6,778 nt of DNA from IMG/VR virus record IMGVR_UViG_2695420382_000017; one strand, given 5' to 3'. Position 1 is the first letter of the stretch. Each line of letters starts with the position of its first letter. Of this stretch, positions 825 to 6,778 are shown piece after piece. The stretch is from a virus (lineage: Duplodnaviria > Heunggongvirae > Uroviricota > Caudoviricetes). The notes beneath the pieces are model-generated. The model did not search any database. It was not told the DNA's origin and worked only from the letters and a program-made list of their open reading frames with translations. The position numbers and the translations under genes were made by a program.

Positions 825-2678
825 TTATGATGATGCCGGTGCATTTATCTCCAGCACCAGACTTTCTATCTCAACGCCATACGCTGCATTTTTGGTAATA
901 TCCGTCAGCGTCAGCGCATTCAGCCCCAGTGTCAGACTGTCTTTTATGACCTGGAATGCCGGGCCAGCCACTCCATTCAGTTTCGGAGTAACCGTGGCAC
1001 TGCCGGCGGTGAACACCAGCTCCAGCGTCAGCCAGTCGTTACTGTAATTCCCGAACTCGCCCAACTTTGTGTTTCCTGCTTTCTTGTGATGCATCAGATT
1101 CAGTTTGCCGTCTGTGGTCTGGGTGAAGAACGACATCAGGAACGGGTTACCAGTCCCGGTCATCGCCACGACGTCAGGTAACGCTACATCGGTATACAGA
1201 TAAATTCCCAGACCGAACTGGTTGGTGGTCAGTGCGCCTGACAGTCGAAACTTACAGCTCAGTCTGCCACCCCGTGTCAGCAGGGAGACTGCGTCATCCA
1301 CCGGGCGCGTCAGGGACCAGGCTTTATTGCTCTGCTTGGTGATCTTAAATACACCATCTGACAACTGAACTCCGCCATTCTTAATGCTCCAGCCCTGCGC
1401 AGCAGCGTCTCCGGCTGTCGGCAACAGGGAGATTGTGCGTATGGATGCATCTTCAGACGGCCCCGATGGCGTGTCGCCGCCGGGCGAGGGTTTGATTTCC
1501 GGTGCCTTACCACTAATGAAGGCTAAGGTGCGACCGGCTACGTTCAGAATAGCAGTTGCCATACGATCGGGAATAATGCCACGACGCGCCCATGAGCTGA
1601 AATGCGTCGGGCGATTTGATGATACCCAGTTTTTGTTCGTTCGGGATGCCGAACCGTAATAACCAGACCCGGCAATATCAGGATCTTCTGACGGGTTGTT
1701 TGTCGGTGTATTAACTCCGCTACCATCGGTCATAAAGGGAACAAAATAAATCTGCTGGGATTCTTTACCTTTATATGCACCATATACCACTTCATATTGC
1801 GTACCGTGTTCTTGTTTCCACGCGTATGTCGTGTCGCCACAAATCCAGGGGACTGATGCCGGACTTCCACCGTGACACTGCGCCGCCAGCCCGGCAAGGT
1901 CAGCACGGAACTGCTGTACCATTGCAAGAAATGCTGCTGGCTGCTGGGCGTAACTGGCATTCGTCATATCGAATTCCCCCTGCATCCAGCATATCGCCAG
2001 CAAAACGTTTTTCGGGTTTTTCTGCAATGCTGCCTTCGTGCGGAAAAGCAGATCCTGATATAACGGCTTACCCACTCCCCAGCGAGCCGAATCCTGACTG
2101 GCCCCCGTGGACTCGCTGAATGTCCCCTCCGTGCCCTGGGTGAATGCCGAACCACCACGACAGCATGGTACCAGCAGGATCCCCGCATTATTAGGGATAT
2201 ACGGAAGCAGTTTTTTGGCAATATGTAAGCCCTGTCCGACACAGCCGTACTGCCCTTTGCTCAGGTCAGCCCGGGGATGGTTAATCGTACTCATATCCTG
2301 AACATCATGCAGACAATGGTCAGCAGGAATGATGTCGTTAAATACGCATACTTCACCACCGGGAGTCACTGTGTTACGACGGGCCAGTTGCTTAATGCGC
2401 GGATGGGGCGCATCGTATGAATCCGGAAGCGGAAGACCTTCACCGTAAGCCATGGCATTGGATTGCCCGGCCAGTACGATGACGTAGTACCACTCCGGCT
2501 CAGTTGCACCACTGACGACCACATCACCTTCTGCTGCAATCGCCTGCATCAGGGTATAAGGGGTTATGGCCACCGGACTACCAAACGGCTGCCAGCCCTC
2601 CTTCAGTTTTTGTGTCAGTCGTTTCGCAAGGTCTGACGGCGATGCCGCCCTGACCACGTCATAGTGTTTAAATGCCAT
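825..2678 (-). CDS. nanS-p: Prophage-encoded sialate 9-O-acetylesterase NanS-p (N-terminal DUF1737-like domain, SGNH/SASA esterase domain, C-terminal putative carbohydrate-binding domain), 617 aa
   Basis: 617-aa ORF starting MAFKHYDVVRAA... with GGAGG Shine-Dalgarno 5 nt upstream. It contains the SGNH-hydrolase motif VIVLAGQSNAMAYGEG. Domain order and position (downstream of the tRNA/stx locus, upstream of S) match nanS-p of Stx-phage-like prophages in EHEC (established knowledge, from memory). Confidence 0.9.
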   Translation of the reverse strand: MAFKHYDVVRAASPSDLAKRLTQKLKEGWQPFGSPVAITPYTLMQAIAAEGDVVVSGATEPEWYYVIVLAGQSNAMAYGEGLPLPDSYDAPHPRIKQLARRNTVTPGGEVCVFNDIIPADHCLHDVQDMSTINHPRADLSKGQYGCVGQGLHIAKKLLPYIPNNAGILLVPCCRGGSAFTQGTEGTFSESTGASQDSARWGVGKPLYQDLLFRTKAALQKNPKNVLLAICWMQGEFDMTNASYAQQPAAFLAMVQQFRADLAGLAAQCHGGSPASVPWICGDTTYAWKQEHGTQYEVVYGAYKGKESQQIYFVPFMTDGSGVNTPTNNPSEDPDIAGSGYYGSASRTNKNWVSSNRPTHFSSWARRGIIPDRMATAILNVAGRTLAFISGKAPEIKPSPGGDTPSGPSEDASIRTISLLPTAGDAAAQGWSIKNGGVQLSDGVFKITKQSNKAWSLTRPVDDAVSLLTRGGRLSCKFRLSGALTTNQFGLGIYLYTDVALPDVVAMTGTGNPFLMSFFTQTTDGKLNLMHHKKAGNTKLGEFGNYSNDWLTLELVFTAGSATVTPKLNGVAGPAFQVIKDSLTLGLNALTLTDITKNAAYGVEIESLVLEINAPASS

Positions 2679-2900: not shown

Positions 2901-2908
2901 GCCCACAA

Positions 2909-2929
2909 GAAAACCCCTCCGGAGAGGGG
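2909..2929 (-). terminator. Rho-independent terminator, minus strand, formed by the hairpin at the edge of repeat copy A
   Basis: CCCCTC-CGGA-GAGGGG hairpin; on the minus strand it is followed by TTTTCTTGTG. It is convergent with the plus-strand terminator at 2873-2900. Confidence 0.45.
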
Positions 2930-3140
2930 CTAAAGCCGCGTATCTGTATCATCATGCACATGGTGCCGGGTGCCTCCCGGTGAGTTCAGCCCGGTGCCAC
3001 TAAACCCGCGTCATTCTCGTTTTGATAATCAGAGATTATACCGTCACCAGTCGCCCCTCCGCTCAGGGGGATTCACCATGCGAAATTTTTTTAACAAATG
3101 CCCAGTCTGACAGGCAACTGTCAACTTACTGAATTGTGAG
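2914..3140. repeat. ~210-bp noncoding repeat module, copy A (diverged, roughly 70-75 percent identical to copies B and C)
   Basis: Shares with B and C the blocks CCCCTCCGGAGAGGGGCT, CATGGTGCCGGGTGCCTCCCGGTGA-TTCAG, CGCCCCTCCGC-CAGGGGGATTCACCATGC, TTTAACAAA, CAACTGTCAAC and CTGAATTGTGA, separated by diverged spacers with indels. Confidence 0.7.
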
Positions 3141-3176
3141 CAACATAGCATTTAACGGGGAACCTGTTTTCTGCAG

Positions 3177-3204
3177 TAAAAAGGCCCACCGGAGCGGATG
3201 GGCC
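3177..3204 (-). terminator. Rho-independent terminator, minus strand
   Basis: Minus strand reads GGCCCATCCGCTCCGGTGGGCC (GC-rich stem-loop) followed by TTTTTA. Confidence 0.5.
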
Positions 3205-3330
3205 TGGAAGGATAGCGGTCATGTGATGCCGGTTTCCCGGTAACTCAGCACCGGTATCTGAGTCAACGTTTTCTCTACTGGGTCATTTCCGATACGCCCT
3301 GCCTGCTGACAGGCTTTCATCACATCTGAA

Positions 3331-3345
3331 AATATAGCACCCTGA
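3331..3345 (-). promoter_or_regulatory. Candidate sigma70 promoter with extended -10 (TGcTATATT) on the minus strand
   Basis: Minus strand reads GTGCTATATT (TG plus TATATT) at plus 3340..3331; the -35 is weak. Prediction by eye only. Confidence 0.25.
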
Positions 3346-3399
3346 CTGATACTGTAGTACCTAAGGTTCCAGAAACTGTGATGTATCCGGCACAGAAAA

Positions 3400-3608
3400 G
3401 CCCCTCCGGAGAGGGCTGGAGAGTGGCGCTATGTGCCATTGCATGATGCCGGGTGCCTCCCGGTGAATTCAGTACCAGCACCTGAATCCGCGATTATCCC
3501 ATATACCTACTCGCTGATTGCCCCTCCGCACAGGGGGATTCACCATGCCAGTTTCTTTTAACAAACTCCCCGCAAAACAGACAACTGTCAACCGTCTGAA
3601 TTGTGAAG
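3400..3608. repeat. ~210-bp noncoding repeat module, copy B (about 97 percent identical to copy C); distal end truncated by or abutting the IS1 remnant
   Basis: Near-identical to 5675-5884, differing by 1 indel and about 4 substitutions. Begins with hairpin GCCCCTCCGGAGAGGGC and ends CTGAATTGTGAAG, directly joined to internal IS1 sequence. Confidence 0.85.
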
Positions 3609-3946
3609 CCAGCGCTGGCGCGATTTAGCCCCGACATAGCCCCACTGTTCGTCCATTTCCGCGCAGACGATGACGTCACTGCCCGGCTGTATGCGCGAGG
3701 TTACCGACTGCGGCCTGAGTTTTTTAAGTGACGTAAAATCGTGTTGAGGCCAACGCCCATAATGCGTGCAGTTGCCATGTTTTACGGCAGTGAGAGCAGA
3801 GATAGCGCTGATGTCCGGCAGTGCTTTTGCCGTTACGCACCACCCCGTCAGTAGCTGAACAGGAGGGACAGCTGATAGAAACAGAAGCCACTGGAGCACC
3901 TCAAAAACACCATCATACACTAAATCAGTAAGTTGGCAGCATCACC
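3609..3946 (-). mobile_element. IS1 remnant: left inverted repeat plus insA-proximal ~340 bp, truncated internally
   Basis: Minus strand begins GGTGATGCTGCCAACTTACTGAT (IS1 terminal inverted repeat) at 3946 and continues with IS1 insA-region sequence. Relative to canonical IS1 as recalled from memory there appears to be an ~85-bp internal deletion. The element ends at an internal IS1 position at ~3609 with no right end. Confidence 0.8.
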
Positions 3947-4018
3947 CGCCTTGAGCGAGATATATTAAAAAAAGCAACAGCGTATTTTGCACAGGAGTCG
4001 CTGAAAAATACGCGTTAA
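3947..4018 (+). pseudogene. IS3-family orfA, C-terminal fragment (5' end removed by the IS1 insertion)
   Basis: Frame encodes the typical OrfA C-terminus DILKKATAYFA with a stop at 4016-4018; there is no start codon because the element is truncated at 3947. Confidence 0.6.
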
Positions 4019-4053
4019 TCGAACAATGGCGACAACAATTTCCCATTGAAGCG

Positions 4054-4872
4054 ATGTGTCAGGTATTTGGTGTATCCAGGAGCGGTTATTACAACTGGGT
4101 ACAGCATGAACCCTCAGACAGAAAACAAAGTGATGAGCGGCTAAAACTGGAGATTAAGGTGGCACATATCCGCACTCGCGAAACATATGGAACCCGGCGG
4201 CTCCAGACGGAGCTGGCAGAGAATGGCATCATCGTTGGTCGTGACCGACTGGCACGTCTTCGTAAGGAGCTAAGGCTACGCTGTAAGCAGAAACGCAAGT
4301 TCAGAGCGACTACGAACTCGAACCACAATCTGCCAGTTGCGCCAAATCTGCTGAACCAGACGTTCGCTCCTACAGCACCAAATCAGGTCTGGGTGGCGGA
4401 CCTGACGTATGTTGCCACACAGGAGGGATGGTTGTACCTCGCTGGCATCAAAGATGTTTATACGTGCGAAATTGTCGGCTACGCCATGGGAGAGCGCATG
4501 ACAAAAGAGCTGACAGGTAAAGCCCTGTTTATGGCGCTCAGGAGCCAGCGCCCACCTGCCGGGCTAATCCACCACTCTGATCGAGGTTCACAGTACTGCG
4601 CATACGATTACCGGGTCATACAGGAGCAGTCTGGTCTGAAAACATCAATGTCGCGTAAAGGTAACTGTTACGACAACGCTCCGATGGAAAGCTTCTGGGG
4701 AACGCTGAAAAATGAGAGCCTGAGCCACTATCGTTTTAATAACCGGGATGAAGCCATCTCAGTAATACGGGAATACATTGAGATTTTCTACAATCGTCAG
4801 CGTCGTCACTCTCGTCTGGGGAATATCTCCCCGGCAGCCTTCAGGGAAAAATATCATCAGATGGCTGCTTAA
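4054..4872 (+). CDS. IS3-family transposase OrfB (DDE integrase-type catalytic domain), 272 aa from the first ATG; normally expressed as an OrfAB fusion by -1 frameshifting
   Basis: Translation contains hallmark IS3-family OrfB segments (NQVWVADLTYV, HHSDRGSQY, NCYDNAPMESFW, YNRQRRHSRLG), consistent with the DDE catalytic triad region. Confidence 0.9.
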   Translation: MCQVFGVSRSGYYNWVQHEPSDRKQSDERLKLEIKVAHIRTRETYGTRRLQTELAENGIIVGRDRLARLRKELRLRCKQKRKFRATTNSNHNLPVAPNLLNQTFAPTAPNQVWVADLTYVATQEGWLYLAGIKDVYTCEIVGYAMGERMTKELTGKALFMALRSQRPPAGLIHHSDRGSQYCAYDYRVIQEQSGLKTSMSRKGNCYDNAPMESFWGTLKNESLSHYRFNNRDEAISVIREYIEIFYNRQRRHSRLGNISPAAFREKYHQMAA

Positions 4873-4913
4873 AAAAAGAACAAATGGTAGTGTCCGCTAT
4901 TGCCAGTACACCT

Positions 4914-5042
4914 CAGGGTATAAGGGGTTATGGCCACCGGACTACCAAACGGCTGCCAGCCCTCTTTCAGTTTATGTGTCAGCTTTTCCGCAAGATCTGA
5001 CGGCGGCGCCGCCCTGACAACATCATAGTGTTTAAATGCCAT
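4914..5042 (-). pseudogene. nanS-p paralog, N-terminal 43 codons only, disrupted by the IS3-family insertion
   Basis: Minus-strand translation MAFKHYDVVRAAPPSDLAEKLTHKLKEGWQPFGSPVAITPYTL matches the first 43 residues of the intact NanS-p with 4 differences (about 90 percent nucleotide identity by eye), then reads into the IS right end. The upstream leader differs from that of the intact copy. Confidence 0.85.
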
Positions 5043-5235
5043 GGTTCTTTCCACCATCTGAAAAATAATTCTTTAAAATACCTGACATGTAATACAGAAA
5101 AAACACAAAACCATACCTTAAATAAAAACCTGATTATCAAGCAGATATGCATGGATAAACTACAAGACGAGATATAAACCACCCTGCATTTAAATAAACA
5201 ATAAACAACATCAGAAAAATAATTCTGCTCTATGG

Positions 5236-5262
5236 TTTACATTCAAAAATATCATTTATACT
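5236..5262 (+). promoter_or_regulatory. Candidate sigma70 promoter (TTTACA, 15-nt spacer, TATACT) for the ORF at 5303
   Basis: Sequence read by eye in an AT-rich region; spacer is suboptimal at 15 nt. Confidence 0.3.
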
Positions 5263-5302
5263 TTTCAGAACATCACCAGCAAGGCATAAACAAGGAAACT
5301 AA

Positions 5303-5638
5303 ATGAAGTGGATTGTGATTGATACAGTTATCCAGCCATCATGCGGAATATCTTTTTCAGTCATATGGAGTAAAATAAAATTAATAATCTGGTATCAATC
5401 GGATGCTTTCTTACCTCCTGAAAGTATATTTACACTGACTCACACAGGCATCATGCTCAATAACAAAGTGCTACCTGTAACCATTTACAACGTAGTACCA
5501 TTCAATAAAACATTCTGGAATTTAATCAAAAACAGCCAGGAATGCCCTACAAATACAGATAACGTATTGAATGAATGCTTTAATAACCGTTGCACTCTGC
5601 AAATATGTCCTTATGGACTAAAACAACAAAGTCCATAA
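5303..5638 (+). CDS. Hypothetical protein, 111 aa, AT-rich orphan moron ORF, convergent with the phage late operon
   Basis: Strong Shine-Dalgarno (AAGGA, ~6-nt spacer) before the ATG and a candidate promoter upstream. The region is AT-rich by eye (not counted). Five Cys residues. No family recognised. The 3' end is covered by an 11-bp perfect inverted repeat. Confidence 0.5.
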
Positions 5639-5674
5639 GGAGTTTACTCACATCTGACAAAATCAATATAAACA

Positions 5675-5697
5675 GCCCCTCCGGAGAGGGGCTGGAG
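5675..5697 (-). terminator. Candidate rho-independent terminator (minus strand) at the end of repeat copy C
   Basis: GC-rich 7-8 bp stem with CGGA loop; the downstream minus-strand sequence is T-rich but interrupted. Confidence 0.4.
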
Positions 5698-5884
5698 AGT
5701 GGCGCTATGTGCCATTGCATGGTGCCGGGTGCCTCCCGGTGAATTCAGTACCAGCACCTGAATCCGCGATTATCCCATATACCTACTCGCTGATTGCCCC
5801 TCCGCACAGGGGGATTCACCATGCCAGTTTCTTTTAACAAACTCCCCGCAAACCAGACAACAGTCAACCGCCTGAATTGTGAAG
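5675..5884. repeat. ~210-bp noncoding repeat module, copy C (complete)
   Basis: Near-identical to copy B and clearly related to copy A. On the minus strand it ends in hairpin GCCCCTCTCCGGAGGGGC followed by the T-rich GTTTATATTGATTTTG. Confidence 0.85.
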
Positions 5885-6085: not shown

Positions 6086-6439
6086 CTACCCCAGATGAGT
6101 AATCCGAAGTTCATCCATACCACAGGTCCTGGCTATTCTGTTGTACTCCTGAACAAGAGCAAATAATTCTGAATTAGCAACCATGAACTCATCGCAAACC
6201 CTCTGTATAGCATCACTATTCAGAATAATAACGTCTCTTCCCGAAAGACGATCAGGAGTACAGAACAAAACTGTCAAACGGCTGAAGGCCTTTGCTCGTG
6301 CTGCATTGACTATATCAATACGCTGCCTAAGGATGAAACACCCCGACGCCTCATCAATATTCACTCTACCCACACCATATGAATGATAAATATTTAATGC
6401 TGAAAAAACCATTAGACCGTATAACAAACACTCAATCAA
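6086..6439 (-). CDS. Hypothetical ORF, 117 aa, at the position occupied by stxAB in Stx phages; doubtful
   Basis: Open frame in late-operon orientation just downstream of the tRNAs, but it starts with TTG and has no recognisable Shine-Dalgarno, and no family is recognised. May be a decayed or noncoding region. Confidence 0.2.
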   Translation of the reverse strand: MIECLLYGLMVFSALNIYHSYGVGRVNIDEASGCFILRQRIDIVNAARAKAFSRLTVLFCTPDRLSGRDVIILNSDAIQRVCDEFMVANSELFALVQEYNRIARTCGMDELRITHLG

Positions 6440-6549: not shown

Positions 6550-6626
6550 TGGCGCGCTGTACTGGATTCGAACCAGTGACCGATTGCTTAGAAGGCAATT
6601 GCTCTGTCCGGCTGAGCTAACAACGC
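6550..6626 (-). tRNA. argO: tRNA-Arg (anticodon UCU)
   Basis: Minus strand GCGTTGT-TA-GCTC-AGCCGGACA-GAGC-A-ATTGC-CTTCTAA-GCAAT-CGGTC-ACTGG-TTCGAAT-CCAGT-ACAGCGC-G-CCA: canonical cloverleaf with a 7-bp acceptor stem (one G-U), TTCGAAT T-loop, anticodon TCT and encoded CCA. Similar to E. coli argU. The symbol is assigned by position; it could equally be argN. Confidence 0.85.
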
Positions 6627-6726: not shown

Positions 6727-6778
6727 TGGTGGCCCTTGCTGGATTTGAACCAGCGACCTGGCGATTATGAGTCGCTCG
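6727..6778 (-). tRNA. ileZ: tRNA-Ile (anticodon CAU, lysidine-type, ileX/ileZ-like), 3' 52 nt only; 5' part lies beyond the window end
   Basis: Minus strand ...GACTCATAATCGCC-AGGTC-GCTGG-TTCAAAT-CCAGC-AAGGGCC-A-CCA: CAT anticodon loop, canonical T-arm, acceptor 3' strand and CCA. Strongly resembles E. coli ileX. Confidence 0.75.

Follow-up and report, generated by a model that had tools for sequence, protein, structure and literature searches.

Copies of the prophage small RNA STnc100 in a Caudoviricetes sequence: constant core, variable 3′ segment and a tandem array

We analyzed a 6,778-nt stretch of viral DNA (IMG/VR record IMGVR_UViG_2695420382_000017, Caudoviricetes; hereafter the window) that carries three copies, A, B and C, of a structured module of about 210 nt, which a preliminary description had put forward as a candidate family of prophage late-region small RNAs (sRNAs). 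Judged by their match to Rfam, A, B and C are members of RF02076 ("Gammaproteobacterial sRNA STnc100"), an already catalogued and experimentally detected sRNA family. The RF02076 matches and the Hfq-crosslinked relatives of these copies bear out the proposal of a structured, noncoding, terminator-ended prophage RNA on the late strand, while the candidate family turns out to be the curated Rfam family STnc100. We consider it very probable that each module is the gene for a prophage-encoded, Hfq-binding sRNA that acts in trans and joins a constant scaffold to a hypervariable 3′ targeting segment. The copies in the window are:

Copy A, 2901..3140, minus strand: STnc100 (RF02076 match 3110-2901, 161 bits; terminator stem 2931-2912, then a U-tract)
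Copy D, 3176..3349, minus strand: diverged copy (RF02076 30.1 bits, E = 0.0012; own terminator 3205-3182)
Copy B, 3388..3608, minus strand: STnc100 of the EcOnc05 type (RF02076 match 3577-3388, 123.6 bits; terminator 3417-3399)
Copy C, 5664..5884, minus strand: STnc100 of the EcOnc05 type (RF02076 match 5853-5664, 132.4 bits; terminator 5694-5673)

The whole window was scanned against Rfam 15, in which the gathering score of RF02076 is 47 bits. Copies A, B and C match over the full model (positions 1-206), all above the gathering score, and D falls under it. For reference, the copy in Sakai prophage Sp5, which follows stx2B at a distance of 75 nt and is convergent with AsxR, scores 208 bits. 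Comparison with published sequences, which like the Rfam scan had been suggested at the outset, refined this assignment. The northern probe for EcOnc05 matches exactly at 3485-3519 (B) and 5761-5795 (C), in the orientation that detects minus-strand RNA, and the EcOnc05 locus of Sakai prophage Sp4 is 97.6% identical to B and 98.6% to C; B and C are therefore of the EcOnc05 type, and A carries a different 3′ segment. The EcOnc27 probe, which maps within the Sakai Sp5 STnc100 match, has no match in the window, and an Sp5-type (EcOnc27) identity was rejected for the window copies. Strand, position, terminator and fold are shared with the reference RNAs (STnc100, EcOnc05 and EcOnc27, the last being the sRNA103 of Gruber and Sperandio in EDL933), but the 3′ segment of copy A differs from both EcOnc05 and EcOnc27, the window lacks stx genes and has DUF3927 and iraM as its upstream morons.

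The anatomy of the copies agrees largely with what had been described. All three lie on the minus strand, where each is closed by a G+C-rich hairpin and a run of U, the CCCCTCCGGAGAGGGG hairpin being an intrinsic terminator on that strand, as proposed. The remaining blocks were likewise all found, namely a CCGGG-TGCCT-CCCGG hairpin, a CCCC...GGGG hairpin followed by GATTCACCATGC, and the blocks TTTAACAAA, CAACTGTCAAC and CTGAATTGTGA. In a repeat finder, B (3413-3608) and C (5689-5884) match at 98% identity along 196 nt, and the more diverged A aligns with B/C over an 87-nt block (3053-3139, at 79-82%) and a 31-nt block (2959-2989, at 94-97%). The 5′ block of copy A, CACAATTCAG..GTTGACAGTTG, extends to 3140, beyond the Rfam match; its 3′ cassette is of type GCAUGAUGAUACAGAUACGCGGCUUUAG, and the copy is 100% identical to one in sequence L027. 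Copy B has lost its 5′ flank, with an insertion sequence 1 (IS1) remnant directly upstream of CACAAT. The repeat finder detected no inverted-repeat pair around any copy, in line with the original remark that the module does not resemble a miniature inverted-repeat transposable element, and a transposable element was rejected on this ground. The account of a triplication holds for three clear copies, but it overlooked the diverged fourth copy D, whose place between B and A makes B-D-A a head-to-tail array.

The fold is conserved among homologs through compensatory changes. Homologs were gathered by a two-anchor pattern, which gave 13 genuine genome loci and more than 120 viral contigs once two chance matches (Actinomycetota and Bifidobacterium) were excluded. 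The genome loci come from E. coli/Shigella, E. albertii, E. ruysiae, Escherichia sp., Klebsiella spallanzanii, Phytobacter and Enterobacter, with three of the 13 on short contigs labeled Veillonella, Xanthomonas and Proteobacteria metagenome-assembled genome; the Veillonella and Xanthomonas contigs are probably contaminants, their copies being identical in sequence to E. coli ones. We aligned copy A and 55 representatives less than 96% mutually identical with MAFFT (n = 56) and projected the Rfam structure from the Sakai row. Paired cells amounted to 83.5%, versus 41-47% with slid partners, and none of 500 shuffles reached the observed value. Compensatory changes are clear in the terminator and in the GGGUUCAG/CUGAACUC hairpin (GC 26 versus AU 21; AU 39, UA 6, GC 5). 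Because the way this first set was collected prescribed the 5′ arm of the long-range helix, a second set was anchored outside both arms. In the second set the helix pairs at 8/8 positions in 108 of 158 unique variants, versus 16 of 158 for an offset control, with many double-sided changes (e.g. ATGCAGTG/CACTGCAT, CTGCTGTG/CACAGCAG and CTACGGTG/CACCGTAG).

The resulting architecture has a covarying, multi-hairpin core of about 150 nt, in which three or four hairpins meet at a junction closed by an 8-bp long-range helix (GCAUGGUG/CACCAUGC). Folded alone, A and C each show this family architecture in their minimum-free-energy structure, and for A, B and C the long-range helix has a pairing probability of 0.94 or more. 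Conservation is unevenly distributed along the RNA. In the n = 56 alignment, median pairwise identity is 0.89 and 0.80 in the core blocks, 0.67 in the 5′ block and 0.33 in the middle segment, and 19 discrete types can be told apart for the pre-terminator 3′ segment. Middle segments and 3′ cassettes occur in 36 combinations, with reassortment quartets among them.

Copy D remakes every helix of this architecture with different bases (AUGUGAUG/CAUCACAU, GCCUG/CAGGC, GACUCAG/CUGAGUU and CCGG/CCGG), and its family-like fold, at -58.7 kcal/mol, lies next to its minimum of -58.8. At 3339-3331 it carries the extended -10-like motif TGCTATATT. L134 carries a homolog 86% identical to D, in which additional compensatory changes preserve this motif, hairpin 1 and the terminator; its long-range helix contains a single C-A mismatch. 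Identical copies of D stand in five other arrays. D thus looks like a live, diverged paralog, not debris.

Published work places close relatives of these copies among expressed, Hfq-associated RNAs. The first description of STnc100 comes from Salmonella, where the RNA is reported beside Fels-1 prophage genes and where ChIP-exo (chromatin immunoprecipitation with exonuclease digestion) reportedly showed RpoD bound at STnc100 promoters. The enterohemorrhagic E. coli (EHEC) strain EDL933 has 11 STnc100 loci, all transcribed without induction and one confirmed by northern blot (Neuhaus et al. 2017, PMC5331693). In Sakai, EcOnc27 (Sp5; ~235/247 nt) and EcOnc05 (Sp4; ~222 nt) both crosslink to Hfq; the 247-nt form of EcOnc27 is less stable when Hfq is lacking, its crosslinking peak spans the 3′ ~80 nt, and EcOnc05 ranks fifth by area under the curve among orphan Hfq sites (Tree et al. 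2014, PMC4104026). Overexpression of sRNA103 raises fimZ and espA transcript levels, and STnc100 variants downstream of stx2 show a statistical link to hemolytic uremic syndrome (PMC12711010). The cellular function of STnc100 is poorly defined.

A second group of prophage RNAs, PasD1 and PasD2 of enteropathogenic E. coli (EPEC) E2348/69 (EcOnc13 in Sakai), offers a structural comparison. PasD RNAs also lie upstream of esterase or holin genes and share a core (GCAUGGUGAAUCC, GGGAGGC) and the overall fold with STnc100; a common ancestor has been proposed, with the two as structural homologs (Zhu, Shabalina and Storz, 2026 preprint). In PasD, the complement of the target motif found by RIL-seq (ligation and sequencing of interacting RNAs), UGUGAG, sits in the corresponding pre-terminator segment. 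Unlike the window copies, PasD reaches 38-41 bits against RF02076, has a different terminator and lacks the CACAATTCAG..TTGACAG 5′ block, and the core alone aligns. Searches of the window for the PasD UGUGAG seed segment and the GGCUGCGC terminator, allowing up to 3 mismatches, were empty, and a PasD identity for the window copies was rejected. As D and PasD both fall under the Rfam threshold, copy numbers of STnc100-type RNAs are undercounted.

Within this framework, each unit in a lysogen would yield a discrete RNA of ~160-250 nt ending at its own intrinsic terminator and laid out as constant core, hypervariable single-stranded 3′ segment, terminator hairpin and U-tail. Hfq would bind the 3′ part of this RNA. 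The pre-terminator segment is the likely seed, because the EcOnc27 Hfq peak covers the 3′ ~80 nt and the PasD target complement occupies the analogous position, and it would most likely pair with messenger RNAs in trans. Different 3′ segments (A versus B/C, and D) would then address different targets, with B and C redundant. Upon prophage induction, polymerase modified by Q should read through all terminators, so that the modules become part of the late transcript upstream of nanS-p. A conserved leader or regulatory structure, which the preliminary description had offered as another option, is a possible role in this lytic read-through transcript and is not the function that we favor.

The start of the RNA is less clearly marked than its end. 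A scan of the minus strand near the modules for consensus promoters gave nothing convincing. The conserved TTGACA lies ~25 nt from the nearest -10-like hexamer and is therefore too far away to serve as a -35 element. In PasD, RNA-seq places 5′ ends on the G of GCAUGGUG, downstream of a promoter-like TTGACT-18-TAAAAA pair; at the aligned position STnc100 has TTGYCT-18-(TG)TAAAAR, and D has its extended -10-like motif. This candidate pair accounts for the PasD 5′ ends; the northern sizes from EHEC (222 and 235/247 nt) disagree with it and have the RNA begin where the CACAAU block starts. Upstream of CACAAT, a -35 element common to different contexts was not found. The discordant 5′ ends could reflect two promoters, or one promoter and processing.

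Several points weigh against a trans-acting sRNA with a 3′ seed. The two data sets disagree on the 5′ end (start of CACAAU or G of GCAUGGUG). The effects of sRNA103 on fimZ and espA rest on overexpression and are unclear in mechanism, and STnc100 is without any validated direct target. The expression and Hfq data come from near-identical EHEC copies, in organisms other than that of the window, and copy B is deprived of its native 5′ flank. In the predicted fold of C the 3′ segment is paired with the 5′ block, which could mask a seed. Finally, the putative seed is the least conserved part of the RNA and the scaffold the most conserved, an arrangement that is most unusual for an Hfq sRNA.

The module might instead be a cis element, a 3′ untranslated region or terminator insulator of the upstream moron, with the RNA as a processed 3′ fragment. 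We regard this as unlikely. It would agree with the position of the module, always after moron or transfer RNA (tRNA) genes and with a strong terminator at its end, and with the 222- and 235/247-nt forms, which start at a conserved block, beside an AU-rich UUUAAAU, and share no -35 element. A terminator alone, however, leaves the covarying multi-hairpin core unexplained. The PasD 5′ ends lie just 3′ of the promoter-like pair that aligns with the STnc100 block and with TGCTATATT in D, and RpoD is reported at the Salmonella STnc100 promoters. Moreover, units D and A of the array have only the terminator of another unit upstream, and all copies are expressed in uninduced EDL933.

Conservation could also operate at the DNA level, with the constant blocks acting as boundaries for homologous recombination in the exchange of lambdoid morons and the RNA as incidental. 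The mosaic of constant blocks around variable segments, with its 36 combinations and reassortment quartets, has the form that such exchange would leave, and the type of the partner RNA downstream of STnc100 reassorts too. Double-sided compensatory changes in four helices are nevertheless needless for recombination, and the RNA is abundant, Hfq-dependent and of discrete size. We therefore hold this account, taken as a replacement for the sRNA, to be quite improbable, although RNA and DNA roles are not mutually exclusive.

The chance that the module encodes a small protein, whether from the conserved AUG (MVNPP...) or as the opposite-strand "hypothetical protein" pseudogene of RefSeq, appears very slight. 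Conservation of GCAUGGUGAAUCC, ribosome footprints on some EDL933 copies (ribosomal coverage value up to 3.2) and the fragments of coding sequence (CDS) that the Prokaryotic Genome Annotation Pipeline (PGAP) places over the locus speak for translation. Other EDL933 copies, however, have low ribosomal coverage, and no reading frame is open across the homologs on either strand, in keeping with the broken and differing frames noted beforehand and with conservation at the nucleotide level; an intact protein-coding frame elsewhere was looked for among the homologs and not found. Translation from the conserved AUG, over at most 150 nt, yields peptides as short as 5 aa and as long as 50 aa or more, whose sequences differ from the end of the hairpin 1-encoded part onward. 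No Shine-Dalgarno sequence precedes this AUG, which lies within the long-range helix and is followed directly by a stop codon in D, and the three open reading frames (ORFs) tested have no Pfam match.

Across thousands of E. coli genomes, RefSeq/PGAP calls STnc100 and PasD loci partial or pseudo "hypothetical protein" CDS, not noncoding RNA (examples are L001 9609-9734, L002 6920-7045, L004 2198-2439 and hits H56-H65). With these labels in place, sequence readers will keep rediscovering STnc100 loci.

Membership in the AsxR/AgvB family of anti-sRNAs (sponges), which the preliminary description had suggested, has in common with the modules the prophage neighborhood and Hfq binding, and can be set aside as having next to no probability: RF02702 and RF02703 have no match in the window, nor in 2680-2915 at E up to 10, although they score 41 and 88 bits on Sakai as a positive control; a motif search of the window did not find the conserved ~42-nt 3′ domain TTGCCCGAACCCAYTCGGGC ending in GCCCGAACCCAYTCGGGC; the modules measure ~190-240 nt and their RNAs ~160-250 nt, versus 51-60 nt for AsxR/AgvB; and they lie on the late-operon strand, whereas AsxR and AgvB are antisense to the late operon in the reference phages. 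Membership was rejected on the model and motif searches. The relation is positional: AsxR/AgvB/EcOnc03 RNAs (RF02703, RF02702) share the moron-site neighborhood, and at least eight Sakai prophages have them paired convergently with STnc100-type RNAs. They are nevertheless a separate family, and copy A has a partner of the EcOnc08/21/42 type. Like STnc100, the sRNAs of Salmonella prophage islands (Gifsy/Fels), among them IsrK from the late region of Gifsy-1, are prophage-encoded and Hfq-associated, but they belong to separate Rfam families, none of which matches the window.

The partner RNA converges on copy A from the opposite strand:

Partner RNA of copy A, 2707(?)-2900, plus strand: terminator 2872-2893 followed by a U-tract; promoter-like site 2672-2700

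Judged by sequence, this RNA is a homolog of EcOnc08/21/42 (Sakai Sp4, ~271 nt) and of the EPEC RNA "E2348C_1409.E2348C_1408.IGR". It is 94% identical to the Sakai Sp4 locus, and the EcOnc08/21/42 probe matches at 2796-2826 with 3 mismatches. No Rfam family was assigned to it in the scan, which returned a weak OmrA-B match only (25 bits). Its 5′ end would be at 2707 by the promoter-like site, or at ~2630 if the RNA is ~271 nt long as in Sakai; in the latter case it would be antisense to the nanS-p start codon (2678) and could act on nanS-p in cis. The EPEC RNA was detected by RIL-seq, with a reported target motif GGCAAGG, and the window RNA has the complementary CCUUGCC at 2862-2868 as a putative seed. 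Across the STnc100 family the downstream partner is of either the EcOnc08/21/42 or the AsxR/AgvB type, and convergent sRNA pairs lie between moron genes and a conserved phage ORF in eight Sakai prophages (PMC4104026).

The genes around the modules identify the setting as a prophage late region. In close relatives among complete E. coli genomes, the order on the late strand is Q antiterminator, DNA methyltransferase, tRNA-Ile, tRNA-Arg, DUF3927 and STnc100, followed by iraM (on the opposite strand), a SASA esterase of the nanS-p type, a class II holin, DUF1327 and lysozyme. Sakai Sp5 and Sp4 have this layout too, with STnc100 placed after Q, tRNA and moron genes and before esterase and lysis genes. 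Pfam matches in the window cover the esterase, the holin, DUF1327, DUF3927 and an IS3-family transposase (rve and HTH_21 domains). The main features other than the modules are:

825..2678, minus strand: intact nanS-p-type esterase gene (Pfam DUF1737, SASA and DUF6645), downstream of the array
~3607-3946, minus strand: IS1A remnant with an internal deletion in insA, annotated as IS1A in matching genomes
~3947-4915, plus strand: 5′-truncated IS600 (orfB 4054-4872), abutting the IS1A remnant and annotated in matching genomes
4916..5043, minus strand: 5′ remnant of a second nanS-p gene (translation starts MAFKHYDVV), cut by IS600 after ~128 nt
5303-5638, plus strand: homolog of the moron iraM (RssB anti-adaptor), between copy C and the nanS-p remnant
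6550..6626, minus strand: tRNA-Arg(UCU), in a tRNA cluster with a partial tRNA at 6730-6778; Q upstream, moron/sRNA site downstream

Each copy had been said to sit upstream of a nanS-p gene or its remnant. This is accurate for A, which adjoins nanS-p with the convergent plus-strand RNA in between, but B and C do not adjoin it: on the late strand B is followed by D and then A, and C, which has the DUF3927 gene upstream, is followed by iraM and then by the 128-nt nanS-p remnant. The second nanS-p is recognizable from a repeat of 4913-5052 with 2549-2688, the start of the intact gene, at 89%.

The copies appear to have two origins. Twelve other loci contain the 731-nt B-D-A array at ~99% identity, a spacing of 467/468 nt between copies was seen nine times, and in L027 the array directly follows three tRNA genes; B, D and A are a tandem array passed on as one block. 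Over 282 nt, copy C does not differ from the most frequent variant of the homolog set, and C-type copies occur in 2860 of 5426 complete E. coli genomes, in up to 12 places per genome. Copy C derives from a second prophage late region fused through an IS600/IS1 rearrangement, which makes the window a fusion of two prophage late regions. In no complete E. coli genome does a single place account for over 75% of the window, and the combination of IS600 with IS1 hints at Shigella or an IS-rich E. coli.

Multi-copy STnc100 arrays are common, and other viral contigs carry three to five tandem units with a period of ~253 nt. Examples of array contigs are L173 (4349-5513 and 8357-8555), L148 (342-1038), L158 (1702-2340) and L166. 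In two viral contigs a match to isrI (RF01392) adjoins the STnc100 array.

A broader interpretation, which we put forward as a tentative possibility, is that STnc100 constitutes a modular platform of constant scaffold and swappable seed, in which the core serves a partner other than Hfq, the seed is diversified by recombination and units are combined in multi-seed arrays. If this were so, the near-invariant core would have a sequence-specific partner in addition to Hfq, be it a protein, an RNase or a further RNA, and units would be stacked in tandem multi-seed arrays of up to five units, including cryptic paralogs such as D that Rfam misses. The usual pattern of Hfq sRNAs, where the seed is the most conserved part, would thereby be inverted. 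As an identification the result has little discovery value, given that STnc100 is a curated Rfam family, among the most often annotated bacterial sRNAs and detected in EHEC, but experiments may be easier to design with the constant core, the variable 3′ segment and the arrays mapped out.

Further observations concern the remainder of the window. An AT-rich stretch that separates tRNA-Arg from the DUF3927 gene contains a 117-aa ORF (6086-6439, minus strand) without a Pfam match, which the closest genomes leave unannotated. Between the nanS-p stop and the holin start, at ~712-750 on the minus strand, lies a terminator-like hairpin, GCCATCAGTACTTAACTGGTGGC, followed by a T-run; PasA of EPEC has a matching position on the opposite strand, and a PasA identity was rejected when the PasA probe found no match in the window. 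The arrangement of iraM between STnc100 and nanS-p is also present in the ST131-type prophages L001 and L002.

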